Below, piece by piece: positions 8,869-45,200 of a stretch of DNA of 64,000 nucleotides. Made by a program: the position numbers and the translations under genes. The notes under the pieces are model-generated. The model had not been told where the DNA came from. It worked only from the letters and a program-made list of their open reading frames with translations, and made no database searches. This DNA comes from an uncultured Desulfobacteraceae bacterium (GTDB lineage Bacteria > Desulfobacterota > Desulfobacteria > Desulfobacterales > UBA5852): contig CALNZV010000007.1 in the NCBI GenBank assembly GCA_942491115.1, positions 194,605-258,604 on the forward strand, given 5' to 3'. The first letter of the stretch is position 1; every line of letters begins with the position of its first letter.

Positions 8869-8945
<77 letters not shown>

Positions 8946-8992: not shown

Positions 8993-9225
8993 GTCTTAAA
9001 ATTTTGACACCCACCACTATACCCACCAGCCAGCTTATATATCCAAGTAAACCCAGGTAAGAGCGATGGTTAAAAACGCAGCTTCCTGCGCATGGAGCCA
9101 GAATCTCGCAGCTACAACCTCAACTCTATCCACGCCGCATTAGACCCTTCACCCGTTCATAGATCAACGGTCTCACCATCAAACCATCCTCTTAACCAAC
9201 CAAAACACACCCCGACGCGCGGCCC

Positions 9226-11457
<2,232 letters not shown>

Positions 11458-11467
11458 TTTTGAATCA

Positions 11468-11482
11468 GGGTATTTAGGGGAC
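11468..11482 (+). repeat. Left-TIR stub of element copy 1, severed by the IS110 insertion
   Basis: GGGTATTTAGGGGAC equals the first 15 nt of the element left ends at 18591 and 19108. The continuation CGCCCTTTATATTT resumes at 13211. Confidence 0.8.
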
Positions 11483-13209
11483 ATTCTATATTCCCCCTGT
11501 CAACAAAAAAATAAAAGATGAATTATCAATAAGTTATCTTTTTAGTCGGAGCCCACAAACACTTCTCCCGTCGGTATTGTATGTCGGCGAGTTTCTCTCT
11601 TCTCGGCGAACTCATGGCCTGATCGTTACAGTTATCCGGTGTCCTGCCGGAAACGGCGGCACCCATCATTCCTTATCCAGGCTTGGAGTTCAGAGAGAGG
11701 CCCGGGGATTGTCCCTCCAGAGGTTATGGCCTCAACGTCCTTTATCGGGCTCTCTCGCCGAACAAACTGCTTTGATTGTTAAAAGCGCCGCTTACACTTG
11801 CAGCAGCGCGGGATCATAATCCGTATTGTCGCGCATCATGCACCAGGCAATCACCAGCATTTTGACGGCCAGTTTCACCCGCATCTTGGTCTTGATGCCG
11901 CGCTCGCGCTCCCGCCCCTGCAGGTAGCGCGTAAACAAAGCTCGGAAGCCGTCGTTGTGATACGTGGCAATTAGCGCTGCTTGATACAAGGCATAGCGAA
12001 GGTCGCCATTGCCGCGCTTGGAGATCACCGGCACGGCCGTATCACTGCTCTTGCCGCTGCGCTTGGCATTCAGATCGTAGCCGGCCAGGCGGATAAGCTG
12101 CTTCCTGCCGGCAAAGCGGTGCGGGTTGCCGATGCGGGCGATCACCTGGGAGGCGATGTAGGGGCCAAAGCCTGGGATCGTTAACAGCCGCCGGTAAGAG
12201 GCAAAGCCCCGGCAGATGCGCTCGATGCGTTCTTCGGTATCCTCGATGCGTTCGCGCAGGCCGTTTAGGCGATCCACCAGCTGACGGGCTTCGAACCGGG
12301 CGGCATCATCCACGGGGCAGCCGACCGACACCGCAGCAGCCTCGTAGATGCGCTGCAAACGCTTGACCTGCCGTAGGCCCCGATCCCGGTCGGTGACCCG
12401 CCGGAGAAAATCGTCAAAGGATATGGCGCTGATCGTGCGCGGGTCCAGACAGCTGCGCACAATGGCCAGATTCTCTTTAAGGCAGCTGCCCCACAAGCGG
12501 TCCATCTCGGGGAAGTGGCGGACCAGAAGTCCGTTGCGAATCTGCATGCGCACGCTGTGTTCATCGCGTTTGAGCCGCTTGCGAAGCGACAGCAAGCAGC
12601 GCAACGCGGTAAGCTCCGCCGAAGGTTGTTCGAAGAACTGGCATTTGCCCTGGGCCATCAGATCAGCCACATTGGCGCTGTCCTTGGTATCGTGCTTGTC
12701 CCAGCGGCCGTCGAGACTCTCGCGGTTGTCGGCAATGGCTTTGCTGGAGACCAGGACCAAAAACCGTCTCTGCTCCAAAAGCCAATTGGCCAATGGCTTG
12801 TGGTAATTGCCGGTGGGTTCCAATCCGAAAGCGACTCTTGTGCAGGAGTGGGTCACCATCAGTTGTTCAACGCGTTCGATGAGCTGTTCAAAACCGGTGC
12901 GGTTGTTGTCAAAGATCTGGCGCTTTAAAAGGGTCTTTCCGGTGGCGGTGCCGAAGAAGGCATGGTGGCGCTCCTTGGCCACATCGATGCCTACGAGCAG
13001 ATAATCCCGGCAGCCGCGCACAGTGGAGCGAAATTGACAGAATGCCTCATACCTGTTAGCTTCTTCGTTACTCATGATAGCCTCCTCGTAGCTCGTGTTG
13101 AAGGTTTGCCCACCTTTGTGTTACCTGGAGGCTATTTTCTTTTCAAGGCGATAATTACTTTTATTTTTACTACTCTTGGAGGTATATTCTCTAACTATTT
13201 CAATATATA
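11483..13209 (-). mobile_element. IS110-family insertion sequence (~1.73 kb), no terminal inverted repeats, flanked by AC on both sides
   Basis: Boundaries inferred by comparing the interrupted element TIR with intact copies. The two ends carry an outward TTGACA and a TATATA that would form a promoter on circularisation. The 309-nt non-coding end 3' of the transposase gene suggests an IS1111-like layout. Confidence 0.85.
11792..13075 (-). CDS. IS110-family DEDD transposase
   Basis: N-terminal LLVGIDVAKERHH (DEDD/RuvC-like domain) and C-terminal LLTIPGFGPYIASQV...SKRGNGDLRYALYQAA (Transposase_20-type domain). 427 aa. RBS GAGGAGG lies upstream. Confidence 0.93.
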   Translation of the reverse strand: MSNEEANRYEAFCQFRSTVRGCRDYLLVGIDVAKERHHAFFGTATGKTLLKRQIFDNNRTGFEQLIERVEQLMVTHSCTRVAFGLEPTGNYHKPLANWLLEQRRFLVLVSSKAIADNRESLDGRWDKHDTKDSANVADLMAQGKCQFFEQPSAELTALRCLLSLRKRLKRDEHSVRMQIRNGLLVRHFPEMDRLWGSCLKENLAIVRSCLDPRTISAISFDDFLRRVTDRDRGLRQVKRLQRIYEAAAVSVGCPVDDAARFEARQLVDRLNGLRERIEDTEERIERICRGFASYRRLLTIPGFGPYIASQVIARIGNPHRFAGRKQLIRLAGYDLNAKRSGKSSDTAVPVISKRGNGDLRYALYQAALIATYHNDGFRALFTRYLQGRERERGIKTKMRVKLAVKMLVIAWCMMRDNTDYDPALLQV

Positions 13210-13829
13210 ACGCCCTTTATATTTATACATTTACTTGCGAAGTCGTTTTTGATACTGATCGAGCATGCCAAGGCGAGCGCGAATCGACGCACCGGGTGCG
13301 ATCCACCATATCATTGTCAGGGGAATCGAGCGGCGCAAGATATTCGTTGACGACGAGGACCGCCATGACTTTGTAAAACGGCTGGGCGATGTGGTTGGGC
13401 CGTCGTCCAATCGATTCGCAAGACCGGTGTATTCTTGAAAAGCGACGAACGCATTTTGGGTAGCAGCGAATTTGTGGATAAGGTCTTGGCTGCTGCCCAG
13501 GAGGTCATGCAGAACAAGTATGCACTGGCTGCTAAGGGTATTGGTTTTGACGAGGTTGTGGCTGCGGTGTCGAGACGGTTGTCGATTAAACCGCAAGCGT
13601 TGGTGGGTCCTTGCAAAGAGCGCATCATTGTAAAGGCCCGGCAGTTAGTGTGCCACTGGGCTGTGAGTGAACTGGGGTTATCGATGACCGAAGTGGCGAA
13701 GAGGTTGGAGATATCCGTGCCAACGGTAAGTGCTGCGGTAAAAAAGGGGAAGCAAATTGTCCTCAGTGAAAGATTGGTGCTGGCTGATCTATTGAATATA
13801 GAAATATGAAGGGCGTCCCTATCGTTCCC
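13210..13829 (+). mobile_element. Copy 1 of the ~0.63-kb TIR-bounded element (right 620 bp; the left 15 bp is at 11468-11482)
   Basis: Near-identical to 19108-19740. The right end ATAGAAATATGAAGGGCGTCCCTATCGTTCCC is the imperfect inverse of the left end GGGTATTTAGGGGACGCCCTTTATATTTATAC (23/32 matches). Confidence 0.85.
13265..13809 (+). pseudogene. Internally deleted Y1 (IS200/COG1943-like) transposase with C-terminal DnaA-C-like HTH
   Basis: 57-aa N-terminal ORF (MPRRARIDAPGAIHHIIVRGIERRKIFVDDEDRHDFVKRLG) stops at 13436-13438. A second frame from 13435 encodes SDERILGSSEFV...WAVSELGLSMTEVAKRLEISVPTVSAAVKKG. The segment that normally carries the HUH motif and catalytic Tyr is absent. Confidence 0.75.
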
Positions 13830-13859
13830 GCTAATGCCAGTACCGACCGGGTACGGCGG

Positions 13860-14575
13860 GGTGACACCATTGGCTATGATGGAGGGGAATCTCTCTGGTG
13901 ACGGATAGAAGGCCACGAGACCCGTACACTGCGACGACCGCGGCTTGTCCTGAAGGTGGAATTCGAAGGATAAGGAATACGATATGACGTGGCCGGGATT
14001 GTCCAGAAAAAGACGCCGGGGGATACGTTACTTTGAATATGATGAGTAAGCGAAGACCGCCGAGATTACGGATCTTCAGAAGATATGTTTATACTAGATA
14101 CGGGAATGGAATCGGGCGGATAGCGGGTATTTCTGACCTTGGAACCGTGATTATGATTACGACGCCCGCGGCCGTTTATACAAGAGACGTAATCTTGAAA
14201 ACTACGTGTTAATGAAATTTTCTTTGGGGCAGGTTGAAAGCTATATATCCAAAGATAGACGTTGAGTTTCCCGCGGTGTGATGGGAGGATATAGAAGCAA
14301 AGAGTAAATTAGGTGCGGATATGGATTGTTTCGGTATGGCGTTTAATTTTGGATCGCCGTCGGATTTATAACCCGGAGGCGACACCATGATAGCAGTATG
14401 GATTGGGTGCTTGAGGTGGTAACGGGAGTAGATGGAGAGGTTTACCACGATGAAATGGAACGTGAGGGTGTAATTGGACGATTTCTGCCTATAACCAGAC
14501 TACCAGTATGATGCCTAATGCTAATGATAGACAATATCTGGGAATTTGATACGCTAGAAAAGTGGGCAACGGTGA
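13860..14575 (+). pseudogene. Degenerate RHS/YD-repeat region
   Basis: YD-type motifs are scattered over different frames and interrupted by stops, e.g. DYDYDARGRLY (14149-14181) and RYFEYDE-stop (14026-14049). Confidence 0.5.
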
Positions 14576-15651
14576 CGGAAGAGGGCAGCAAAGAAATATA
14601 CTACACCGGATCAACAGCTGGCTTGTGACGGAGACATACCAGATGTTGTGCAGGATGCCGCCGGCAACACAACCTCCATCGGCCAGATGGATCTGATCTA
14701 CAATCAACGGAATCGCTTGATCAGGGCCGAAGACAATGGGGTGGTGGTGGGGGAATACGAGTACAATGCCATGGGACAGCGGGTTACCAAAACCATAGAT
14801 GGGGCGACGACCGTATTCATATATGACTTTGATGGCAATATCATCGCCGAAAGTGACATAGACGGCACCTTGCAAAAGGAATATATTTATATTTTGGGAA
14901 ACCGGTTTGCCATGATCGATTCGGCAACCTATTATCTTTATTTTTACCATAACGATCATTTAGGCACCCCGATACTGATGACAGATGTTTACGGGGACTT
15001 GGTGTGGGAGGGCAATTATGCGCCCTTTGGTGATGTCGAGATCAGCGAGGCATCATCTATCGAGAACAACTTCAGGTTTGCGGGCCAATACTATGACCAT
15101 GAGACTGACCTGCACTACAACTACCATCGATACTATGATCCGGCCACTGGAAGGTATCTCACGCCCGACCCGATTGGGCTGGCTGGGGGGATTAATCTGT
15201 ATGCGTATACTGAAAACAATCCGATCAATCTGATTGATCCTTTGGGATTGGACACCACCACCAATAGACTTAATTTTACATTCATTTTTGGAGATATAAC
15301 CATAGGTAGGGCAACTGATGACAAAGGTAACTCTGGATTGGTTTTCTCCGCCGCATTAGGCTTTTCCGCTTCAGTGGGCGTAACTTACGGGAAAACTACT
15401 ACCAATGCGCTACTATTGATAGCCTCCAGGGATGGGGTTCCTCTGCCGGAATAGCCGCTGGAAGCCCCTTATTATTTTTGGGAGCTGAAGTTAATAAAGT
15501 AAAAACCGGGCGATTGAATGAGAATACTTACATGGGTGAGGATTGGGGTGTCGGCTTAGGAATCGGCCTACCATCAACAGGGCAGGTATTTACAGGGATT
15601 ACAGCTCTATATAAAATGGAAGCTGAGGCTGAAAATGTCAACTGTGATTAA
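14576..15651 (+). pseudogene. RHS repeat-associated core domain plus C-terminal toxin tip (5'-degraded, frameshift near 15420)
   Basis: YD repeats then the core motif FRFAGQYYDHETDLHYNYHRYYDPATGRYLTPDPIGLAGGINLYAYTENNPINLIDPLGL. No start codon, open only from 14576. The Gly-rich tail continues in another frame to the TAA at 15649-15651. Confidence 0.85.
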
Positions 15652-15961
15652 TTCATGGCCTATTTGGGGATACTTATTATTCTTTATTTATCTTTACTAT
15701 ATAATTGTAAAGTTCCAGAATACGATTTCTGATAAGTATCCGGATGATGCTGATAAACTTATTGGAACAAAAAGAATATGGGGGATCAATCAGAAATCCG
15801 GATTATTCTTTTTATGGGACAATAATATTAAACAATTAATTCAGAATGATCATGACGTAGTCAGCCTTAGAAGAAGGTGTGTAATATCTTTTTGGATTTT
15901 TCTTTCCTTGTTAATTGTTTTGCCATTCACGGACATTATTGGTGGAATACTATTCAGGTAA
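15635..15961 (+). CDS. Small membrane protein, putative cognate immunity protein of the RHS tip
   Basis: The ATG lies inside the last codons of the toxin-tip frame (typical toxin/immunity overlap). AT-rich. Two hydrophobic helices (WPIWGYLLFFIYLYYIIV, ISFWIFLSLLIVLPF). No recognisable family. Confidence 0.5.
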   Translation: MSTVINSWPIWGYLLFFIYLYYIIVKFQNTISDKYPDDADKLIGTKRIWGINQKSGLFFLWDNNIKQLIQNDHDVVSLRRRCVISFWIFLSLLIVLPFTDIIGGILFR

Positions 15962-16049
15962 TAATGCTTAATTTCTAATTGAGTTATCCATAAAGCTCTT
16001 TGAAATATTAGTTAGATATGCGGCCAATACTTCGAGCGAGACAGGTTGA

Positions 16050-16135
16050 TTACAATTACACAGATATAGATTAAGATTGGTAGGTATATTACGGACGATT
16101 GGGTTGGTGGGGGGATAATTGTATGCGTATGTCGC
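16050..16135 (+). pseudogene. Second, degenerate RHS core-end remnant (orphan cassette)
   Basis: 16079-16132 (ggtaggtatattacggacgattgggttggtggggggataattgtatgcgtatgt) aligns with 15149-15210 (GRYLTPDPIGLAGGINLYAY region) with small indels. Confidence 0.45.
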
Positions 16136-16615
16136 ATCAAAACTAATGATATATGGGTTAAATACGCCGAGAATATGAGGTTAGGTGTATTGAGGAGGAA
16201 CTTAGCCGTGATTATAGTCTGAGATGTGCTTATTGGCGGGAATGTTGTTATGGAAATTGGCGAGGAAGGCATTGGGTGGTGAATTGGGTATGGAGTCGGT
16301 TGATTGTAGATTGGTGGATGGGTGAAGATGACGATGATAGTGTCATATTTGGTTGAATAATCTGGAATGCTGATCGATGATGATGAAACATAAAGTGGTG
16401 GTAGAAAATTGACAAGAGAATGCGGATATTTTGGAAAACAAGACGTGAGGTCGGTAGAGCTTGGAGGCTAAAACGTGAGAACGGGTTACAATAATTCACA
16501 AACACGTATTATGAAGAGGGAAACGTGGTCGATAAAAAAGGTAAGTAATCGACAATTTGTTGAATTACATGCACTAATATTTTAACGAAAACGAGCGCTA
16601 TATGTCTAATAATAA

Positions 16616-17032
16616 TCGAATGAGTATAAGTTTGGAATCCGTGGAGATGCTTTGTCGCCTAATGAAATCACTACGGTCTTGGCAATTTCTCCGACAAAAG
16701 CATGGGAAAAAGGGGCTGTATACAAATCGAAATATCAAGATAAAGATGGTTCAGTAAAAAATCGTCAAGCTAATAGGCCCTGGGGCATTTGGGAGCTATC
16801 GTCGACAGAAGAGACATCCTCTGAAGATATTGAAGACCATGCCCAAATAATTATTAAGAAGTTGTATTCTGCACAAAATATAATCAAAGAGTTGATAAAG
16901 AAACCTAGTTTGCAAGTTTATATCAGTGTTTGGTGGCAACCTGAGGGCGGATATGGTGGGTTTACATTAACCGCAGATAGTATTAATAAACTTAGTTTAT
17001 TGTGTAGAGAGATGAATTTCTATTTTTCCTGA
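16616..17032 (+). CDS. DUF4279-family protein (putative orphan immunity protein); start uncertain
   Basis: FGIRGDALSPNEITTVLAISPTKAWEKG...WGIWELSS...DIEDHAQIIIKKL...GGFTLTADSINKLSLLCREMNFYF fits the DUF4279 pattern. No in-frame ATG; the track uses the TTG at 16652. An ATG at 16602 is out of frame, so a frameshift is possible. Confidence 0.65.
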   Translation, partial: SNEYKFGIRGDALSPNEITTVLAISPTKAWEKGAVYKSKYQDKDGSVKNRQANRPWGIWELSSTEETSSEDIEDHAQIIIKKLYSAQNIIKELIKKPSLQVYISVWWQPEGGYGGFTLTADSINKLSLLCREMNFYFS

Positions 17033-17070
17033 GGAACCGAATAGGGTCGCGCCCTAATTATTCGATTGAT

Positions 17071-17113
17071 ACGGCGGTTGGAGACATTCTTCTTTAACCG
17101 CCGTTTCCTTTTT
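17071..17113 (+). terminator. Rho-independent terminator after the DUF4279 gene
   Basis: 9-bp perfect stem ACGGCGGTT/AACCGCCGT with a 15-nt loop, followed by TTCCTTTTTG. Confidence 0.6.
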
Positions 17114-17503
17114 GGGGGAAGTGCGCAGGTCTGCCGCTGGCGGTTCATGGCCTGCAGGGAGCGAGCTTCGACGGCAAGGAGACATAATGTTGGTTATTAG
17201 CGAAGCGAGGGCAGGCGTCCGCGGGGCGGTGTTTTTGTTTTAACGCAAGCGGCTGCGGAGGTGCCACGGCGGATAAGGCGGCTTATGGCCGTGCCGAGTG
17301 AAGCGACTGCGCCGATGGGAGCGACGAGGAGGCCGCTGTGGCAGCCGGAGCACGGGCGGGCGGGGCATATAGAACAGACCCGATCCTTATTTGGGCGGAT
17401 GGGCGGGTATTGATCGTCAAATCAGACGCGGCTGCGAGCGCAGGCAGCGTAATCCGCCGCAGGCGGATGAAACCCGAGCACGCAGACGCCCCGCATCTTG
17501 TGT

Positions 17504-18025
17504 TCATTGCGGCTCGCATTGATCCGCCGCATAGTCTGCTTCACCGGCTTCGATGGCTGCTTTAGCCCGTTTGTATGCCCATTTAAACGTCTGCGGGCTG
17601 GACTGGTTAAGATCGTCCTTTTTTAGCAGTTCTTTATTTTTTTACGATGTCGATTGTTGATCGCTGCCGCCAGGTCGATTAAGAAGATGCGTGCTGGTTG
17701 CGAAGCGCATTATATTTATTCCCGGCCATGTGGTGGGCGTTTGCACGCTTGTTGGGGTTTAGAAACGTCATCAGCGCAGTCAGTGCTGTTACAATTATAG
17801 CGAGGTATCCCGCCAAAGAGGTGTTATCCTTAAACGCCGATGCACTTGCGATGGCCGCAAGTACAGCGGTCGGCAGCCCAGGCCAAAATGCATCAGTGAC
17901 CAGATGCGGGCAGTCTCAAAATGCCGCTTGGCGGAAAATAGAGTATCTTCTATTATTCGTTGCGTCTCTTTCTGGATAGCGACTCGAAGCTGGACATCCA
18001 TTTGCTCTAATCCCTTTTCATCCAT
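17504..18025 (-). pseudogene. SLATT-domain 2TM effector, frameshifted
   Basis: Spread over three frames: KRHFETARIWSLMHFGLG / LPTAVLAAIASASAF..LAIIVTALTALMTFLNPNKRANAHHMAGNKYNALRN / ELLKKDDLNQSSPQTFKWAYKRAKAAIEAGEADYAAD. The order and content fit the SLATT family. Confidence 0.6.
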
Positions 18026-18590
18026 AGGTCAGGAAATATCCTTCAAATATTTTCTTCCATTCTGCAAAAGCGCTGCTGGTGTATCCTTGGGCCTCATACA
18101 TCTCGGCCTTTATCGCTCTGTTGTACGCCGTCTCGAACCTGCTCTGGGCGTCTTTTACCGTAGAGACATAGTTTAAGCCGCTTACCTGTTCGTCGTTAAG
18201 GCCAGCAGGATCTATCATTTTAAATTTTATTCTTTCTCGCCCTTTATCGAATACATATCGCACCCCTGATGGATAGCTGGAAATCGTGACTCCGTCCAGG
18301 ATGCTTTTGACCATCAACTCCAGGTAAAACCCATAGAATGCGTTTGAGATGCAGCGGCTCCAGCCTTTTATCATCTTTACCAAGGGGACAAGGTTGCCGT
18401 TGTGCCAGGTGTTTGCTTGCGTCATTTGGCTTTCATGAACCGTTGGGTCGGTGGATATCCAGCGGCTGCTTATCGAGTCCGGAATCAGGTAGCCGCCACC
18501 CTGCCTGTAGAAATGGGGACGACATCAACCATAAAGTCCGTAAACGTGATGGTCACCGCCTGGCCGTTGCGACTTATCCTGGGGCTTTTG
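18018..18590 (-). pseudogene. SMODS/CD-NTase-like nucleotidyltransferase, 5'-truncated and frameshifted
   Basis: AVTITFTDFMVDVVPI (frame a), then GGGYLIPDSISSRWISTDPTVH...NGNLVPLVKMIKGWSR...FYGFYLELMV (frame b). The N-terminal catalytic part is missing where element copy 2 begins at 18591. The stop overlaps the SLATT start. Confidence 0.55.
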
Positions 18591-19107
18591 GGGTATTTAG
18601 GGGACGCCCTTTATATTTATACATTTACTTGCGAAGTCGTTTTTGATACTGATCGAGCATGCCAAGGCGAGCGCGAATCGACGCACCGGGTGCGATCACC
18701 ATATATTGTAGGGGAATCGAGCGGCGCAAGATATTCGTTGACGACGAGGACCGCCATGACTTTGTAAAACGGCTGGGCGATGTGGTTGGGCCGTCGTCCA
18801 ATCGATTCGCAAGACCGGTGTATTCTTGAAAAGCGACGAACGCATTTTGGGTAGCAGCGAATTTGTGGATAAGGTCTTGGCTGCTGCCCAGGAGGTCATG
18901 CAGAACAAATGTGCACTGGCTGCCAAGGGTATTGGTTTTGACGAGGTTGTGGCTGCGGTGTCGAGACGGTTGTCGATTAAACCGCAAGCGTTGGTGGGTC
19001 CTTGCAAAGAGCGCATCATTGTAAAGGCCCGGCAGTTAGTGTGCCACTGGGCTGTGAGTGAACTGGGGTTATCGATGACCGAAGTGGCGAAGAGGTTGGA
19101 GATATCC
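18591..19107 (+). mobile_element. Copy 2 of the 0.63-kb element, lacking the last ~112 bp and the right TIR
   Basis: Starts with the left TIR GGGTATTTAGGGGACGCCC. Collinear with copy 3 up to GAGATATCCG, then runs directly into the left TIR of copy 3. Small deletions lie in the N-terminal ORF. Confidence 0.85.
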
Positions 19108-19740
19108 GGGTATTTAGGGGACGCCCTTTATATTTATACATTTACTTGCGAAGTCGTTTTTGATACTGATCGAGCATGCCAAGGCGAGCGCGAATCGACG
19201 CACCGGGTGCGATCCACCATATCATTGTCAGGGGAATCGAGCGGCGCAAGATATTCGTTGACGACGAGGACCGCCATGACTTTGTAAAACGGCTGGGCGA
19301 TGTGGTTGGGCCGTCGTCCAATCGATTCGCAAGACCGGTGTATTCTTGAAAAGCGACGAACGCATTTTGGGTAGCAGCGAATTTGTGGATAAGGTCTTGG
19401 CTGCTGCCCAGGAGGTCATGCAGAACAAATGTGCACGGGCTGCCAAGGGTATTGGTTTTGACGAGGTTGTGGCTGCGGTGTCGAGACGGTTGTCGATTAA
19501 ACCGCAAGCGTTGGTGGGTCCTTGCAAAGAGCGCATCATTGTAAAGGCCCGGCAGTTAGTGTGCCACTGGGCTGTGAGTGAACTGGGGTTATCGATGACC
19601 GAAGTGGCGAAGAGGTTGGAGATATCCGTGCCAACGGTAAGTGCTGCGGTAAAAAAGGGGAAGCAAATTGTCCTCAGTGAAAGATTGGTGCTGGCTGATC
19701 TATTGAATATAGAAATATGAAGGGCGTCCCTATCGTTCCC
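19108..19740 (+). mobile_element. Copy 3 of the 0.63-kb element, complete (both TIRs)
   Basis: Left TIR 19108-19140 and right TIR 19709-19740. Same two-part pseudogene as copy 1 (C-terminal ORF 19346-19720). A few SNPs versus copies 1 and 2. The last 10 bp TATCGTTCCC is repeated at 19741-19750. Confidence 0.88.
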
Positions 19741-19781
19741 TATCGTTCCCCATTTTAAGCATCGGAATATGAGGAGGTAGC

Positions 19782-20715
19782 ATGCTCATTCAGGTTCCCT
19801 TCAGATCATCAACCAGGGTGTTAAGGCTTGGGGTAAGTGGAGATCAATGAATCGATCTTTGGTTCCGAATCTTAGGGGCGCAGACCTAAGCCATCAAAAC
19901 CTATGTGGAGTTGACTTTAGTAGAGCAGATCTCAACGTTGCCAATCTCAGGAATACAATGCTCTGCAAGGCTGATCTAAGTGGAGCAAACCTTTCTGAAG
20001 TAGACCTAAGCGGGGCAGATCTTAGTGGTGCAAAGCTCTTTGGACTAATTTTACAGAGGCTAATTTGAGCGGTGCAAATTTATCTAACGCATCCATCAAT
20101 TCCGCCTCCTTCGCAAAGGTGAATCTTTGCGATGTTGATGGATTAGATACCATCTATCACAGAGGGCCCTCTTCACTCGGTATAGACACGCTCATCAAGT
20201 CCAAAGGCAAAATACCAGAATTATTCCTCCGTGGATGCGGTGTTCCAGAATCAATAATCCAATACATTCCAACTATGATTGGCAGCGCGATCGAGTTTAT
20301 ACATGCTTCATAAGCTACTCCCATATAGACAATCCTTTGCCAAACGCCTACACGATACTCTTCAAGGAAGGGGTATCAGATGCTGGCTTGACGATCACCA
20401 GATGCTCCCTGGTGACGATATTTATGCGCAAGTAGACCGTGGTATCCGCCTCTGGGACAAAGTCCTTCTCTGTTGTTCTGAGCACTCTCTTAAAAGCTGG
20501 TGGGTGGACAACGAGATCGATATTGTTTGAAAAGAGCGCCGGTTGATGACGGATGAGGTAAGAAGTATTGTCTCTGATTCTTTGACCTTGACGGATACTT
20601 TTTAGTGACGCCTGGGAAGCGGCAACAGCAATAATCGCTGCTGCTGATTTACTGGATGGGAATCAGACAATGCAAGTTCGAGGCGGAGGTCGAGAAAGTT
20701 GTGAAGCGCTGAGGG
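19782..20715 (+). pseudogene. Pentapeptide-repeat / TIR-domain fusion protein, several frameshifts
   Basis: RBS GGAGG plus the ATG at 19782. INQGVKAWGKWR, then A(D/N)LSGA pentapeptide repeats, then TIR (CFISYSH...GIRCWLDDHQMLPGDDI...KVLLCCSEHSLKSWWVDNEI...FEAEVEKVVKAL). These are read across at least 4 frames. Confidence 0.7.
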
Positions 20716-20799
20716 CTGATACGGGGGTGAGGTGCCGGAGCGAACTTATCATTACCAAGGAGGTTGTGGCTACCAAGACCATATTACAGCCTGATCATG

Positions 20800-21686
20800 G
20801 TAATTTGGATGAGTGAGAGAATCCTGATGTGATTCAGATTTTAGGATGAAAACTCCAGAAAAAGTATCTTAGAAGGTGGATTTAGCGGGGCAGATCTAGT
20901 GGAGCGAATTAAGAAAACAAGACTTGTGGAGCGATTTTGCGGTGCAGACCTTGAGGACAACTCGGAAGCTTTTCCTGTATGCAAACTGAGGGAGCTAACT
21001 CAGGAGATCTATCTTTCGAAGCGAGCTTCATATGCGATTTTATACGGCGCTATCTCAGAGGGCATGCATTAGCGGATTTCAGAGCGGACCTCAGTGGGGC
21101 AGATCTTAAGCCTAAAGCTCGGGGCGAATTTATAACTGTGATGTTATGGTATTTTGTTGGGGTGTATACTCGAAGGCATCAAGGAGCAAAAAAACCTCAG
21201 AGTAACCCCTCCAAATGACCGGCGGTCTACATCGATAACCTCGAAGTCGCCCAGTTCGTTTACCTCCTCCTCAACAACGATAAGATTCGCAGTGTCATAG
21301 ACACCATTGGAGAAAAGGGTGTCCTCATCCTCGGGCGTTTCACGCCCGAGCGCAAAGCTGTCCTTGATGCCATACGGGACAAACTGCGAGAATTTGGGTT
21401 TGTCCCGATGATGTTCGACTTCGATCCATCTGACAAACGAGACTTCACTGAAACGATACGGATTCTCGCAGGAATGAGCAGATTTATCATTGCTGACATC
21501 AGTGAACCGAAGTGCATTCCCTTGGAGCTACAGGCAATTGTTCCTGACTATGCCATCCCTTTGGTACCGATTTTCCACGTCCAGCAAGAGCAAGAAGCCA
21601 AAAAGCCTTTCGCTATGATCAAAGACCTTCAAAAGCATGATTGGGTCTTCGATGTACTTGAGTATGAACATCGGGTATCCTCCTGA
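20800..21686 (+). pseudogene. Second pentapeptide-repeat protein remnant with a conserved-looking C-terminal alpha/beta domain
   Basis: Degenerate repeats (GADL.., ADLSGADL) in 20860-21216. Open frame 21219-21686 without a start: VLILGRFTPERKAVLDAIRDKLREFGFVPMMFDFDPSDKRDFTETIRILAGMSRFIIADISEPKCIPLELQAIVP. Domain family not identified. Confidence 0.4.
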
Positions 21687-21798
21687 TTCGTTTGAAGAGG
21701 AATCGTAACCCAGCTAGGATATGGCTGACAGCTTGTTGCTTCAAAAGGTGGAAGGTATACGAAAAAGACGACTTGGGGAAGGTAAATAAGGAACTTAT

Positions 21799-22779
21799 AT
21801 GACCTTTCAATCCCTGCTCGACTTCGTCGAGCGCAAGATGACCCTGTCCCACATTTATCAGCCCCTGATGCTCCGCATCTTGATCGAAGCTGGTGGGACC
21901 GCTACGATTAGACAACTTGCTCACGGATTCCTTGATCACGATGAAAGCCAACTCCAGTATTACGAGGATCGCATCAAAAAGATGCCCCTGCCGGTACTCA
22001 AACGGCGGGGAATAGTCTCTCGAGACGGTGACCTCGTCACCCTGAACTGCAAGAAACTGACTTTCGAGCAGAAGGCGCAGGTTCTGATGCTCTACGAACA
22101 GCGTATGCGTGAGTTCATCATGAAGCGGGGTATCGACCTGTGGGGTTACAGGCTCCTCGATACCGATCCTATCCCCGGTAGCCTTCGGTATCAGGTTATC
22201 AAAGAGTCGGATGGCAGGTGTGCGCTTTGCGGAGCCACCAAGAAAGAGCGCCCTCTGGACGTGGACCACATCATCCCTCGTTCAAAGGGCAGTAAAACCG
22301 AGTATGAGAACCTTCAGGTGCTATGCTCCAAGTGCAACCAGGAAAAAGGCAACAATGACGATACCGACTTCCGAAACGATGACCAACCCGAATCCATGCC
22401 AGACTGCACGTTTTGCTATAAGAACATCAAGTCCCGCATCATCAAGGGCACTGATAACGGTACCGTATTCGCCATCAAGGATGCCTATCCGGTTACCGAG
22501 GGACACACCCTCGTGATCCCCAAGAGGCACGTTGCCGAGTATTTCGACCTCTCGGATGCCGAAAGGCGTGATGCCGATAGCCTCCTGAAGTACCTGAAGC
22601 AGAAAATGACCAAGACAGATCCCAGTATCACCGGATACAACATTGGAGTGAATTGCGGGGAGTCGGCAGGGCAGACCATATTCCACCTGCACTATCACCT
22701 GATTCCCCGGAGGGATGGGGACACCGAGAACCCCAGGGGTGGGGTCCGAGGGGTGATGCCGGGGAAACGAAGCTACTGA
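21799..22779 (+). CDS. wHTH-like N-terminal domain + HNH endonuclease + HIT (histidine triad) fusion protein
   Basis: HNH: CALCGATKKERPLDVDHIIPRSKG...NLQVLCSKCNQEKGN. HIT: AYPVTEGHTLVIPKRH...GQTIFHLHYHLIPR. Intact 326-aa ORF in a region where nearly every neighbour is disrupted. Confidence 0.85.
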   Translation: MTFQSLLDFVERKMTLSHIYQPLMLRILIEAGGTATIRQLAHGFLDHDESQLQYYEDRIKKMPLPVLKRRGIVSRDGDLVTLNCKKLTFEQKAQVLMLYEQRMREFIMKRGIDLWGYRLLDTDPIPGSLRYQVIKESDGRCALCGATKKERPLDVDHIIPRSKGSKTEYENLQVLCSKCNQEKGNNDDTDFRNDDQPESMPDCTFCYKNIKSRIIKGTDNGTVFAIKDAYPVTEGHTLVIPKRHVAEYFDLSDAERRDADSLLKYLKQKMTKTDPSITGYNIGVNCGESAGQTIFHLHYHLIPRRDGDTENPRGGVRGVMPGKRSY

Positions 22780-22796
22780 ACCAACGGGAACCAACC

Positions 22797-24218
22797 ATGG
22801 CTGACGTATTCATCAGCTACGCGCGCGAGGATCTCGAACGGGTTCGACCCATCGTAGGTGCCATTGAGGACGCTGGATGGTCTGTTTTTTGGGACAGAAA
22901 ACCCCTGCGGGTAAGACATGGCGGCAATATATTGGAAAAGCGCTCGATGAGGCTAAATGTGTCATCGTTGTGTGGTCAAAATCATCGATAGAGTCTGACT
23001 GGGTAATGGAGGAGGCGGATGATGGTCGTCAGCGAAGGATACTGATCCCGGTTACGATTGAAGATGTGGTTCCTCCGCTTGGTTTCCGGTCAATACAACA
23101 CGAGAACTTGAGTGACTGGACAGGAAACCCGGAACACCGGAGGGCAAAAAGCCTGCTGCAATCAATCGAAGGGATCGCTGGGAAATCCCCTCAGGGAAAA
23201 TCGCCGGTTGAGACAGTTCAAAAAGAAACCACCGCAGAACCCTCCACCGAAACCGGCCTCCAAAGACAAAAAATCTGCCCCGAAGCGCAAGACCCGTTTC
23301 TTCTTCAAATTGGGACCGATGGTTGTCTCACTTACGGTCGCTGCCGTCGCCCTAACTGTCGGTTATATCTGGTTCGGTGACAAAGAGACCAGCATTGCCC
23401 CTTCAACTCGCCCGCTTCGCAAGAAAAGTTATCTGGCGATGTCAGTGACGGTGTTGGACTTGAGGCGAAAACCAAGGGTAAACCTTTCGAAGAGCTAAGC
23501 GAGGAAGATCCAAAAACACCCAGCGAACTCCCAAAATCCCTTACCAACAGCATTGGGATGACATTTGTAGTGGTTCCTGCGGAACATTAGTGATGGGTAG
23601 TGATGAATGAGACGGAGCAGCCGGTTACAGGTCACCATCCGGAACCTTTTTACATCCAGACTACGGAGGTGACTCAAGGGCAGTGGGCGGCGGTCATGGG
23701 GGAGAATCCCTCGCATTTCAAAGATTGAGGTGACGACTGCCCAGTTGAAAATGTGAGTTGGGATGGTGTCAAGGCGTTTATGCAAAACTCACGCATGGAG
23801 GACGGGGATACCGCCTTCCCACCGAGGCTGAATGGGAATATGCGGCCCGAAGTGGCGGCAAGGATCAGACTTATGCCGGCGGCGAGAACTTGGACGAACT
23901 GGGATGGTACCTCGAAAACAGCAATGGCCAAACCCACCCGGTGGGGCAAAAGAAACCCAACGGCCTGGGGATCTACGACATGAGCGGCAACGTGTGGGAA
24001 TGGGTGGAAGACGATTGGCATATAAATTACGAGGGTGCCCCGGAGGACGGTCGTGCCTGGTCGACAAACCCAGGGGCGCCGACCGGGTGATCCGCGGCGG
24101 CAGCTGGGGCGTCAGTGCCGGGGTCGGCCGCGCGACGACGCGCGGCAGCGGGACCGACATTCTTCGCGTCAGCGGTCTGGGCTTTCGTCTCTCCAGGTCC
24201 GTTACCCTTGGCCCTTGA
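22797..24218 (+). pseudogene. TIR - transmembrane - FGE/SUMF1 (formylglycine-generating-enzyme-like) fusion protein, multiply disrupted
   Basis: MADVFISYAREDL...WSVFWDRK / PAGKTWRQYIGKALDEAKCVIVVWS (TIR). TM helix LGPMVVSLTVAAVALTVGYIWF. FGE: LTNSIGMTF..VTQGQWAAVMGENPSHFKD[15 protein letters not shown]...[15 protein letters not shown]...[11 protein letters not shown]...RVIRGGSW. At least 5 frameshifts or stops. Confidence 0.8.
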
Positions 24219-24646
24219 GCCCTTGGACCCTTGGCAGGGGTTTGCCCGCGAAGCGCGATGAGAAAGCGAATAGCTGGCGTAGCGCCAGCCGCCAAGAGGG
24301 GGAATGGGGACGCTCTCAACAGTTACAAATTTATTGAGGGATAAGGCTACGCTTCTTATCCAATACGACCGTCTCTCCCCTGCTAACCGATTGGCTGACG
24401 GCCGTTGGTGACATACTCAATGGTTGAGATAAAAAGACCATGGTCATCCCGAATTCCCGGACCGCCCAGCAGCAAAGAAGACGTCTCGCGCGAACCGTCT
24501 GGCGATTTTAGAACAGATAGCTCCAGCCACGATGCCGACGGTAGAAGCTCACCGACGCAACCGGTAGGCAAACGCCGCATAGCGCTGCCCAGCGGCACCG
24601 ATCCGGTTTTCAGCAATAGGTGAACTCAAGAATCGTCGAGTCGTCG

Positions 24647-24742
24647 TTAATAAGGATTGGCCTTTTTGACGATCCGACCCTCTGAGTCAACCGTCGTAAG
24701 AAAAGATGTTTTCCGATGCAGATCGTTGCCTGAATAATACAT
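24647..24742 (-). pseudogene. N-terminal fragment of a second IS110-family transposase
   Basis: RBS AAGGAGG then MYYSGNDLHRKTSFLTTVDSEGRIVKKANPY-stop, matching the usual IS110 N-terminus (M.Y.G.DLHKK.S...D..G.IV). The downstream sequence is not recognisable. Confidence 0.5.
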
Positions 24743-42200: not shown

Positions 42201-45200
42201 GGTTCCGTCCGGGTATGGGGGTTAGGGGAGGGGTGAAAGACCATAGGCAGCAGGGATGCTGCGGCGATCACGCCGAGATCCCCGATCCCCGTCGGGGCCA
42301 GGCCGAGCAGCCGCCTCAGGGGGGGAACGACGAAAGTCAACCCCTGAAAGGCCAGTGAGCCCCAGACAGCCATATTGAGGTAGGGGTTCGGGGGCAGCGG
42401 ATCCGCCGAATGGATGGCGCCGGATTCCCTGCGGCAGTTGAAGGCATGAAGGAGCTGGCCCAGGGTAAGCGCCTGGAATGCCAGGGTTCCCGCCCTTGCC
42501 CCCTGGCCATATCGCAGCAGTCCGTAGCCATAGGCCCCCAGGGCTCCACCGGATATGGCGGCTGCCGAGAGCATCATGGACCGGTACTCGTCCCCGGTAA
42601 AAAGTGGGGCGCCCGTGGGCCGGGGGGAACGCTCCAGCACGTCGGGTTCGGGCGCCTCCATTGAGAGGGAAAGGCCGGGAAAGATATCGGAGATGATGTT
42701 GATCCAGAGCAGCTGCATTACGTTCAGGGGAGAGCCGATCCCGAGGCCGATGCCGGCCGTCATGACCATGATTTCGCTGAAATTGGTGGCAAGAAAGAAC
42801 CGGACCGACTTTCGGATGTTCTGGTAGATACCCCGACCATCCTTCACAGCGATGATGAGGGTGTCCAGATTGTCCTTCTGGAGGACCACATCGGCCACTT
42901 CCCTTGCGATGTCAGTTCCGGACTGCCCCATGGCGATGCCCAGATCGGCGGCCTTGAGGGCCGGGCCGTCGTTGATGCCGTCTCCGGTCATGGCAACGGT
43001 CTTTCCATTGGCCTGGATCGCCTGGACGATTTTCAGCTTGTGTGCGGGGCTGACCCGGGAATAGACAAAGACGTGTTTGGCGATGGCCTGGAGCACCTCG
43101 GAATCCAGGGAGGTCAACTCGGCGGAGTCCAGAATCTCCAAAGGTTTGTGGCCGGCGATATTCAGGTGACTGGCGATGGAAAAGGCGGTTGGACTCTGAT
43201 CTCCGGTGATCATAATGGTGTCGATGCCGGCCCGGTGGAACACCGGAATCAAAGCGGAAACCCCTGGCCGAATCGGATCGGCCATGCCCACGAGCCCGAT
43301 CCACACCAAATGGCCGTTGACATCCGACGGTACCGCCCCTTTGAACGTCCCATAGGCAAGACCAAGAACCCTCAAGGCACCGCCAGCCATCTGGTCGTTT
43401 TCCGACTCGATCGCATCCCGCATCTGTCCGGACATTTCCTCCAATCGACCATGGACAAGGGCTTCACCACAGAGGCCCAATACCTCCATGGGACTGCCCT
43501 TGACAAAAACGACACCGCCTTCCGGGGCCGCGTGGCGAGTGTCCATAAAAAGCCGGTTTTCCGATCGATGGGTGATCTTGAGCATGGGATGGGACGCCCG
43601 GAGCTCTCGGACGTCGACTCCCGCCCTTGCGGCCAGGTGAACCAGGGCATTTTCCGTTGCTGAACCGTGAAGGAGGAGGTCTCCACTGCCGTCGATGCCG
43701 TTGATTTCAGATTCGTTGCACAGGGCGCAGCAATGGATAAGGGCCTTCCGATTGGCCGGATGGATCCTGCCGACAGCGGACCGCACGCTCTCCTGGCTGG
43801 CCCCGTCGACATCCGTTCGTTCCATGGAGGTGAACAGGCTCGTGACGGTCATTCGGTTTTCCGTCAGAGTGCCCGTTTTGTCTAAACATATGGTTTCGAT
43901 GGCGCCAAGGGTTTCGACCGCCTGAAGACGCCGGATGAGCACATGGTGTTCCCGCATCCGGCGAATGCCCAATGCAAAATTGATGGTCGCCGCCGCCGGA
44001 AGCCCCTCCGGCACTGCAGACGCCGCAAGGGATATGGCCGTTCTCAGCATAATCAGGAGTCCGTAGCCCCGCATCAGCCCCAGAACGAACACGGCCCCGC
44101 AAATCACCCCGAAGGCCATGACCAGTTTGTCTCCCATCACCCGCAACTGTCTTTCGATTGGCGTTTCGGGAGTTTGGGTATCGTCCAGCAGCTTCTGGAG
44201 GCGCCCGATCTCGGTATCCGGCCCTGTGGCCACCACCACTCCCCGGCCCTGTCCGCCGGTGATGAGGGTGCCCATGAAAGCCATGTTGCTCCGGTCGGCC
44301 AGGGGCGTTCGCTTGATGCGCAGGGTGCCGGGGGTTTTCAGCACCGGCATACTCTCTCCGGTCAGCATGGACTCGTCGATGCTGAGATGGTCGGAATCGA
44401 TGACCCTGCAGTCTGCGGCCACGTACATGCCGGGTTTGAACTCGATGATGTCCCCCACCGTCACGTCTCTGGCGGAGATGTCCGTGGCATTGCCGTCGCG
44501 AATGACGATCGCCCTCGGGTTGATGTAGTGTTTGAGGGAACTGATGGTTTGCTCGGCGCGCCGCTCGGTGACAAAACCGAGATAGGCATTGGCCGCGACC
44601 ACTCCCACGACCACGATGGCATCGATGACGCCGCCGGTCACCATCGACACGCCGGCCGCAGCCGCAAGCAGATACACCGGTAACGAGTTGATCTGCCCCC
44701 AAAGGATATCCCCTCTGCTGCGGGTGCGGGCATCGGGAAGGGTGTTTGCGGGAAGCCGCCGGAGGCGGTCAAGGACGATTGGCGTGGTCAATCCCCTGTC
44801 AAGGTCGGTATCCAGATGCTCGATGAGCCGACGGTGTCCCATGGTGTGCCATAGGGTAGTGTCCTGCTCAATCCCCCCGTCGGCATGGAAAAGACGCAGC
44901 GTGGTCTTCACTATCTCCTTATATCGCGAAGCCGTTTTTTCGGACGGTTCGGTCCCTTCTTTCGAGACCGGCGGGGAGGACGTCGCGGACGCTGCAAGGA
45001 AGGCCCGCTGTTCATCCAGAGATATCGCCTCTGTGGTGATTACCTGGTGGATTCGGTCGGCGAGGGAACGGCTGGACCATGCGCTGTCATACCGAAGGAG
45101 AAGGGTTCCGGTCGTATGGCTGGCGCGGATGCGTCGAACGCCGGGCTCTCTTTTCAGCCGGGCCTCCAGAAATCGCTTCATCAGGGAGGACCGGTGAAGC

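Follow-up and report, generated by a model that had tools for sequence, protein, structure and literature searches.

Three copies of a defective TIRtron in an uncultured Desulfobacteraceae genome and their probable mobilisation in trans

RAYT-like genes flanked by inverted repeats have been described as TIRtrons, and their proteins as TIRYTs (Di Nocera, De Gregorio & Rocco 2013, PMC3733652). The repeats are found in genomes as singles, dimers and groups, and some of them, though only some, share the end motif GGGGWSAS (PMC3733652). A later classification placed most TIRYTs in subclass 2.1 of the TnpAY1 proteins, a subclass present in about 15% of the surveyed strains; its group 2.1.2, whose members carry Bac_DnaA_C or HTH tails and have no REPs nearby, was equated by the authors with TIRYT (Quentin, Siguier, Chandler & Fichant 2018, PMC6006769). 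Members from the Desulfobacterales, deletion derivatives with gene remnants, and tests of mobility are found in neither paper, and experimental transposition by a TIRYT has never been demonstrated (PMC3733652, PMC6006769): common as the elements are, whether and by what means they move has yet to be established.

Here we describe an element from a 64-kb stretch of DNA of an uncultured Desulfobacteraceae bacterium (hereafter, the window), which is a defective member of this already described family. As in TIRtrons, the family gene is a RAYT-like Y1 gene flanked by terminal inverted repeats and not by REP hairpins; a GGGG-type repeat start lies at a fixed distance from the gene, and elsewhere the repeats are found alone, as dimers or in groups. 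The family's outer motif, GGGGACGC, agrees with GGGGWSAS at 7 of 8 positions, position 7 being G and not A. Unlike the described TIRtrons, the window element lacks the catalytic core and is present in three copies. Matched on domain content, the family also resembles TnpAY1 group 2.1.2, having a long Y1 protein with a C-terminal extension like Bac_DnaA_C or HTH_23 and no REPs near; evidence of a mobile unit is absent from that study (PMC6006769), whereas here there is a defined 1091-bp unit together with derivatives.

The initial annotation, made from the letters of the window, had likened the element to REPtrons and MITEs. The analogy is apt, the family having already been named TIRtron/TIRYT and set beside REPtrons (PMC3733652, PMC6006769). 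Like a REPtron (a RAYT, or TnpAREP, with its REP or REPIN sequences), the family has a usually single-copy HUH/Tyr gene between inverted copies of a repeat that also occurs around the genome as hairpin-forming doublets, and that is targeted by IS110-family elements. It differs from REPtrons in lacking a GTAG-tagged palindrome and a significant hairpin at single ends, in the additional HTH domain of its proteins, and in the duplication here of a whole gene-bearing unit and not of repeats alone. Full-length relatives score above the Pfam Y1_Tnp cut-off and match NCBIfam REP_Tyr_transpos with E values of 1e-17 to 1e-20, but at 63.6–72.3 bits they fall below the equivalog cut-off of 80.

Copies of a 633-bp unit in the window

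Alignment and a repeat scan bore out the three copies that had been noted at the outset (A, B and C; Table 1). All lie in one orientation in a single 8-kb cluster, and, the poly-G tract aside, the repeat scan found no other long repeats in the 64-kb window. While copy C is complete, copy A is divided into a stub and a body by an IS110-family insertion inside its terminal repeat, and copy B is 3'-truncated by ~116 bp, right repeat included, precisely at the start of copy C, with which it forms a head-to-tail pair. Pairwise identity among the three is 99.2–99.4%. In alignment, A and C differ by 4 substitutions over 620 bp, and B and C by 1 substitution and three single-C deletions, all three within 25 nt of the N-terminal ORF; at three substitution sites B and C agree against A.

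Table 1. Elements, gene parts and neighbouring features in the window
Feature	Position	Strand	Remarks
Fragment of the element's N-terminal coding region, 60 nt	9650-9709	+	96.8% over 62 nt; in poly-G junk
Copy A, left stub	11468-11482	+	GGGTATTTAGGGGAC; first 15 nt of copies B and C identical
IS110-family insertion sequence	11483-13209	-	transposase CDS 11792-13075; DEDD_Tnp_IS110 and Transposase_20 domains
Copy A, body	13210-13829	+	rest of left repeat 13212-13233; right repeat 13793-13819
57-aa ORF	13265-13438	+	residues 1-44 (13265-13396), Y1 transposase N-terminus; last 13 residues, out-of-frame read-through
Deletion junction, copy A	13393-13395	+	~475 bp absent relative to 1091-bp relatives
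C-terminal reading frame, DnaA-C-like HTH	13393-13809	+	GWAVVQS...LLNIEI, then stop; listed ORF begins at TTG 13435
RHS tip	14648-15454		island gene fragment
DUF4279 gene	16652-17032		island
Copy B	18591-19107	+	left repeat 18601-18627; no right repeat (alignment)
Deletion junctions, copies B and C	18784-18786 and 19304-19306	+	identical to copy A junction
Copy C	19108-19740	+	complete, 633 bp; left repeat 19118-19144; right repeat 19704-19730
Extra tandem outermost 10 bp past right end of copy C	19741-19750	+	TATCGTTCCC; missing from copy A
Pentapeptide-repeat/TIR-domain gene	19847-20530		island; broken over three frames
HNH-HIT protein	21799-22779		island
FGE-sulfatase fragment	23758-24090		island
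Degenerate remnant of a different family member	24340-24625	-	residues ~61-82 joined to ~252-305; different internal deletion; degenerate right repeat
IS110-like N-terminal stub, 31 aa	24650-24742	-	MYYSGNDLHRKTSFLTTVDSEGRIVKKANPY, then stop; preceding remnant just downstream; compound remnant 24340-24742

The flanks of the copies are unrelated from the first base outside the unit, as judged by alignment and the repeat scan, and it is this divergence directly outside the unit that excludes segmental duplication. Extended flanks are not shared among the copies. The claim that the defective derivative had itself multiplied is upheld, within the 8-kb cluster, by the junction that the copies share and by their unrelated flanks. 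A search for duplicated or preferred targets, which had been suggested along with the flank comparison, revealed neither a target-site duplication nor a fixed target or flanking motif among 50 end pairs.

Could the copies have arisen without transposition, through tandem duplication within the island, unequal crossing-over, or gene conversion between copies already present there? That all of them lie within 8 kb and in one orientation makes local duplication or recombination a possibility for B and C, the truncated B abutting C head to tail; other loci of the family commonly have partial copies that are adjacent or nested (L028, L062 and L080), and short tandem duplications are frequent at family ends. 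Against this, the flanks of A and of the B/C pair are unrelated exactly from the unit ends, on both sides, and recombination would ignore such ends, while gene conversion presupposes that both sites already had full-length copies. We consider an origin of this kind distinctly unlikely.

A gene without its catalytic core, and its relatives

The copies share a single deletion junction, with ~475 bp missing relative to full-length relatives, confirming the proposal of one common internal deletion. The initial annotation had further described an N-terminal part of 57 residues joined out of frame to a C-terminal HTH part. The join is indeed out of frame; however, just 44 of the 57 residues are homologous to the transposase, and it is these residues 1–44 (MPRRARIDAPGAIHHIIVRGIERRKIFVDDEDRHDFVKRLGDVV) that are fused to GWAVVQSIRKTGVFLKSDERILG...LLNIEI and a stop. 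Alignment with the relatives places both the HUH motif (NHFHLLL) and the Tyr motif (LFQNRYKS) within the deleted segment in all three copies, in agreement with the earlier claim that the catalytic segment is missing. With both motifs deleted and the frame shifted, the copies are unable to cut or join DNA themselves; the loss in all three makes them a defective derivative and not a functional TIRtron. The sequence GGCTGGGC is found near both deletion breakpoints, but the join does not fall at it, and a junction made by microhomology was accordingly rejected. A programmed frameshift linking the two ORFs seems unlikely as well: inspection of the overlap by eye revealed no slippery heptamer.

What is left of the gene is readily placed. 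Y1_Tnp proteins of 306–340 aa align with 44 aa at its N-terminus and with ~140 aa at its C-terminus, and a protein search with the conceptual fusion returned Y1_Tnp proteins of 306–316 aa, named RayT by JGI. The 124-aa product of the window itself has no database record. The C-terminal ORF in the window scores 31.6 bits against Bac_DnaA_C (cut-off 31.5), compared with 36 bits for full-length relatives. Sequence and profile searches of the PDB gave a marginal match to DnaA domain IV (E 0.8) and none to the catalytic part.

In order to find relatives, a 25-nt end motif was scanned in 185,579 species genomes, which gave 17 loci, in Desulfobacterales MAGs and one Geobacteraceae MAG; the same motif yielded 79 additional loci in metagenome contigs. 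The spacing of convergent end pairs is 1091 bp in 12 loci; in two more it is 1094 or 1115 bp. Intact genes for Y1_Tnp plus Bac_DnaA_C proteins stand between family ends in 1091-bp units in at least 14 loci across genomes and metagenomes; they encode 336–340 aa and score above both Pfam cut-offs. Two further full-length units, of 1098 and 1090 bp, were reached via their proteins and are both frameshifted. A full-length master with the same termini, which the initial annotation had predicted, thus exists in other genomes. The 64-kb window itself, taken from a contig of 1.09 Mb, contains no intact family gene.

None of these relatives is close. Intact full-length proteins show about 52–63% identity to the window element, with none nearer in the protein search, and the relatives that are nearest by that search are themselves frameshifted or deleted. 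The closest is L100, a 714-bp unit with a C-terminal part 74% identical, from which residues ~55–173 are gone, out of frame and with a junction that differs from that in the window; the closest unit of full-length size reached via that search, L097, is frameshifted and has a C-terminal part 68% identical. Compared with all fetched loci, the window shows similarity at the level of the family (65–76%) and no close relative, and an exact scan of metagenome contigs for the junction gave 0 matches to further copies of this deletion derivative.

L100 belongs to a series of sizes. An 852-bp unit (L023) has lost residues 21–87; a 371-bp unit (L034) retains both ends, as do deletion derivatives of 218–263 bp (L044, L078 and L088). 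Among the small units, of 371, 263, 240, 236 and 218 bp, N-terminal coding remnants are present in those of 371, 263, 236 and 218 bp, and none was detected in that of 240 bp (L070). The same ends bound many gene-less doublets of 56–200 bp. In the protein database there are, in addition, core-deleted proteins that are in frame and have varied junctions (P0007, P0014, P0015, P0028 and P0038); in-frame core-deleted proteins with both ends are found at L101 and L103, and the two in-frame cases that were checked are repeat-bounded, at 745 and 735 bp. Together, the size series and the repeat-bounded core-deleted proteins show that loss of the interior with both ends kept is a recurrent fate in this family.

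Partial family copies adjoin full-length 1091-bp units elsewhere (L028, 7676–7813; L062, 4–465; L080, 19–345). These arrangements echo the B/C pair and suggest insertion into or beside existing copies.

Truncated transposases regulate or block the full-length enzyme in other systems, and the deleted copies might likewise have been kept for a function, the product of the DnaA-C-like HTH frame binding the repeat and regulating or blocking that enzyme. Variants that have lost the core but not the HTH have recurred independently, several of them in frame, and copies A and C have an open C-terminal frame. Set against this are the out-of-frame fusion in the window, where the sole start is a TTG inside the conserved region, the fact that, of the 4 substitutions separating A from C, 2 are non-synonymous, and the persistence of gene-less doublets devoid of coding capacity; moreover, finding in-frame variants by means of a protein search carries a selection bias. 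We hold retention for such a function to be highly improbable.

Terminal repeats and the IS110-family insertion

The end motif GGGACGCCCTTYATATTT occurs 5 times in the window, compared to 0.06 expected by chance, and solely at element ends. Imperfect terminal inverted repeats of 32 bp had been reported for all copies. The length is close: the inverted repeat in the window consists of a 27-bp core and ~10 outer bases that are less alike (GGGTATTTAG / GGGAACGATA). The claim fails for copy B, both ends being present only in A and C; the same 27-bp core bounds the 1091-bp relatives on both sides. Across the family the consensus end is GGGGACGCCCTTyATATTTyTATATTyA, of 27–28 bp, with conservation collapsing at -2 and +27. 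Pairwise identity averages 0.92 in the left repeat and 0.87 in the right repeat, compared with 0.645 in the interior. At each locus one end was set by the search itself; partner ends and the loci found via proteins were free of this constraint. The transposase ORF ends as ...LLNIEI within the right repeat, its stop codon being part of ATATGAAGGG, both in the window and, for example, at L040 7595–7621, which means that the last ~six codons are encoded by the repeat itself.

Each end had also been said to contain the small palindrome GGGACGCCC. Strictly, the sequence is not palindromic: an ACG separates its GGG and CCC arms. Single ends fold no better than shuffled sequence (z of +0.2 to +0.6), with just a 4-bp GGGG/CCCC stem, and the comparison revealed no subterminal hairpins of the IS200 or REP type at family ends; nor was a conserved GTAG found there. 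The gene-less doublets form long hairpins, with z of about -8. These features separate the family from IS200/IS605 elements, with which it shares the Y1_Tnp domain (HUH and a single Tyr) of its full-length members and the absence of a target-site duplication. Those elements have subterminal hairpins and lack inverted repeats, and the family is the reverse; their insertions lie 3' of a fixed tetra- or pentanucleotide, and no such target was found for the family.

Of note is a 'stutter' at the ends, in which part of the repeat begins again immediately beyond its true end and which is seen at 26 of 125 distinct ends (21%) compared to 1.6% of controls. The restart stops after GGGACG or after GGGACGCCCTTTA, and in 16 of the 26 ends 4–11 nt of flank are duplicated as well. 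The stutters are short tandem duplications across the junction of flank and repeat (L002, L003, L004, L015, L017, L020, L033, L068, L071, L077, L080 and others) and may mark a nicking site. The 10 bp that follow copy C were considered as the lost right end of copy B; this was rejected, for they match the tandem 'CGT(T)CCCTAT' stutter that recurs at many ends of the family.

A solitary repeat lies at what is apparently one locus in two different MAGs (L001 5089–5113 and L010 1753–1777), with similar flanks, from which vertical inheritance of solo repeats is possible.

The element that interrupts copy A entered the left repeat between GGGGAC and GCCC, with the dinucleotide AC on both sides (11481–11482 and 13210–13211). 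It has both domains of the IS110 family, and the sequence-specific insertion and shared core dinucleotide of that family. On an unrelated metagenome contig, a different family member has at this same position an IS that is 71% identical (L034 5–738); given the shared insertion point, this IS lineage seems to target the TIRtron repeat, much as REPs are targeted by other members of IS110. A search of the IS/element region against Rfam gave no match to a guide (bridge) RNA.

Multiplication in trans and the surrounding island

The 633-bp unit is, we think, probably a non-autonomous and internally deleted TIRtron derivative that has been copied as a unit by transposase acting in trans. In its autonomous form, a TIRtron of this family is ~1.09 kb long, with one gene between terminal inverted repeats of 27–28 bp that start GGGGACGCCC, and its product is a RAYT-like HUH/Tyr (Y1) nuclease with a C-terminal helix-turn-helix resembling DnaA domain IV. 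The ~475-bp deletion put the gene out of frame and took its HUH and Tyr motifs away, after which the unit would have been copied over its full length to one or more other sites, A representing one site and B/C another; later, one of the copies was struck by an IS110-family element that seems to target the repeat. Supply of the transposase in trans is what we infer from the copies, the presumed source being a full-length TIRYT protein encoded elsewhere in the genome, and because the repeats are highly conserved that TIRYT could be a divergent one. It would recognise the repeats as double-stranded DNA, plausibly via its HTH, since the ends are without the hairpins used by IS200/IS605 and REP enzymes, and would cleave within or next to GGGACG/CCC (the slash marking the point).

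The derivative is similar to MITEs and to deleted DNA transposons such as Ds of Ac and defective P elements: the ends match those of an autonomous element and the interior is lost, copies share one deletion, and sizes run in a series from full length to ends only. In the window, the unit has the ends of the autonomous element, no working transposase, and at least two copies with unrelated flanks, as expected of something MITE-like. It is unlike them in that they depend on DDE-type enzymes and make target-site duplications, whereas here the enzyme is a putative HUH/Tyr nuclease and there is no duplication.

Several observations count against multiplication in trans, namely the lack of an intact gene in the window and of a close full-length relative, the empty junction scan, the clustering of the copies, the absence of a target-site duplication or motif, and the doubtful assembly. 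A bolder account would make the TIRtrons of this lineage a working but so far unrecognised insertion-sequence family with a fixed 1091-bp autonomous unit, whose enzyme finds double-stranded 28-bp repeats through the DnaA-like HTH instead of hairpins and nicks at GGGACG/CCC, a point marked by the stutter and by the IS110 crossover; copies that have lost the core and kept the HTH would be trans-mobilised parasites and possibly regulators. In that extended form the account strikes us as rather unlikely.

Taken alone, the window is ordinary mobile-element debris in a junk-rich island. Its value, which is modest, is as natural evidence that TIRtrons move as units: a gene-dead copy has been duplicated end to end, which indicates that copying acts on the repeat-bounded unit and that a source in trans can provide the activity. 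To this the family adds a size series from 1091 down to 56 bp with the same ends throughout. For a direct test, the 633-bp unit and the 28-bp repeat offer a defined substrate, and a 340-aa protein offers a defined enzyme.

Local assembly quality is doubtful on account of two things: the poly-G and purine-rich junk beside copy A, and the clustered 1-nt deletions in copy B. The junk, ~2.2 kb at 9220–11456, starts just downstream of tRNA-Met (8869–8945) with poly-G and continues as purine-rich low-complexity sequence with normal-looking islands until it adjoins copy A. Its appearance is that of an artefact of sequencing or assembly, and a chimeric contig is possible at this point. The copy number might then be partly artefactual, one or two real copies having been inflated or rearranged in a poor, repeat-rich assembly. 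The junk abuts copy A and holds a corrupted fragment of the element, three single-C deletions fall within 25 nt of copy B, and frameshifts break the neighbouring genes; but copy A has three distinguishing substitutions, an IS insertion and flanks of its own, from which it follows that at least two distinct loci are real, and the junction, identical in all copies, is a 475-bp event and not an indel error. Inflation by assembly is in our judgement quite improbable as the explanation of the copies.

The copies lie amid an island of gene fragments of lower GC content (39–50%) that extends over 13830–24300 (Table 1), the frameshifts of which may be real decay or indel errors. Rfam, searched over the whole window and over the IS/element region, gave one tRNA and nothing else; ARAGORN called a 97-nt tRNA-Asp with anticodon ATC at 44555–44651 on the minus strand, absent from Rfam at the gathering threshold and probably a false call. 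Two pieces of the family had gone unnoticed in the initial annotation: the fragment within the junk, which is possibly a corrupted fourth copy, and, on the minus strand, the degenerate remnant that lies next to the IS110-like stub.
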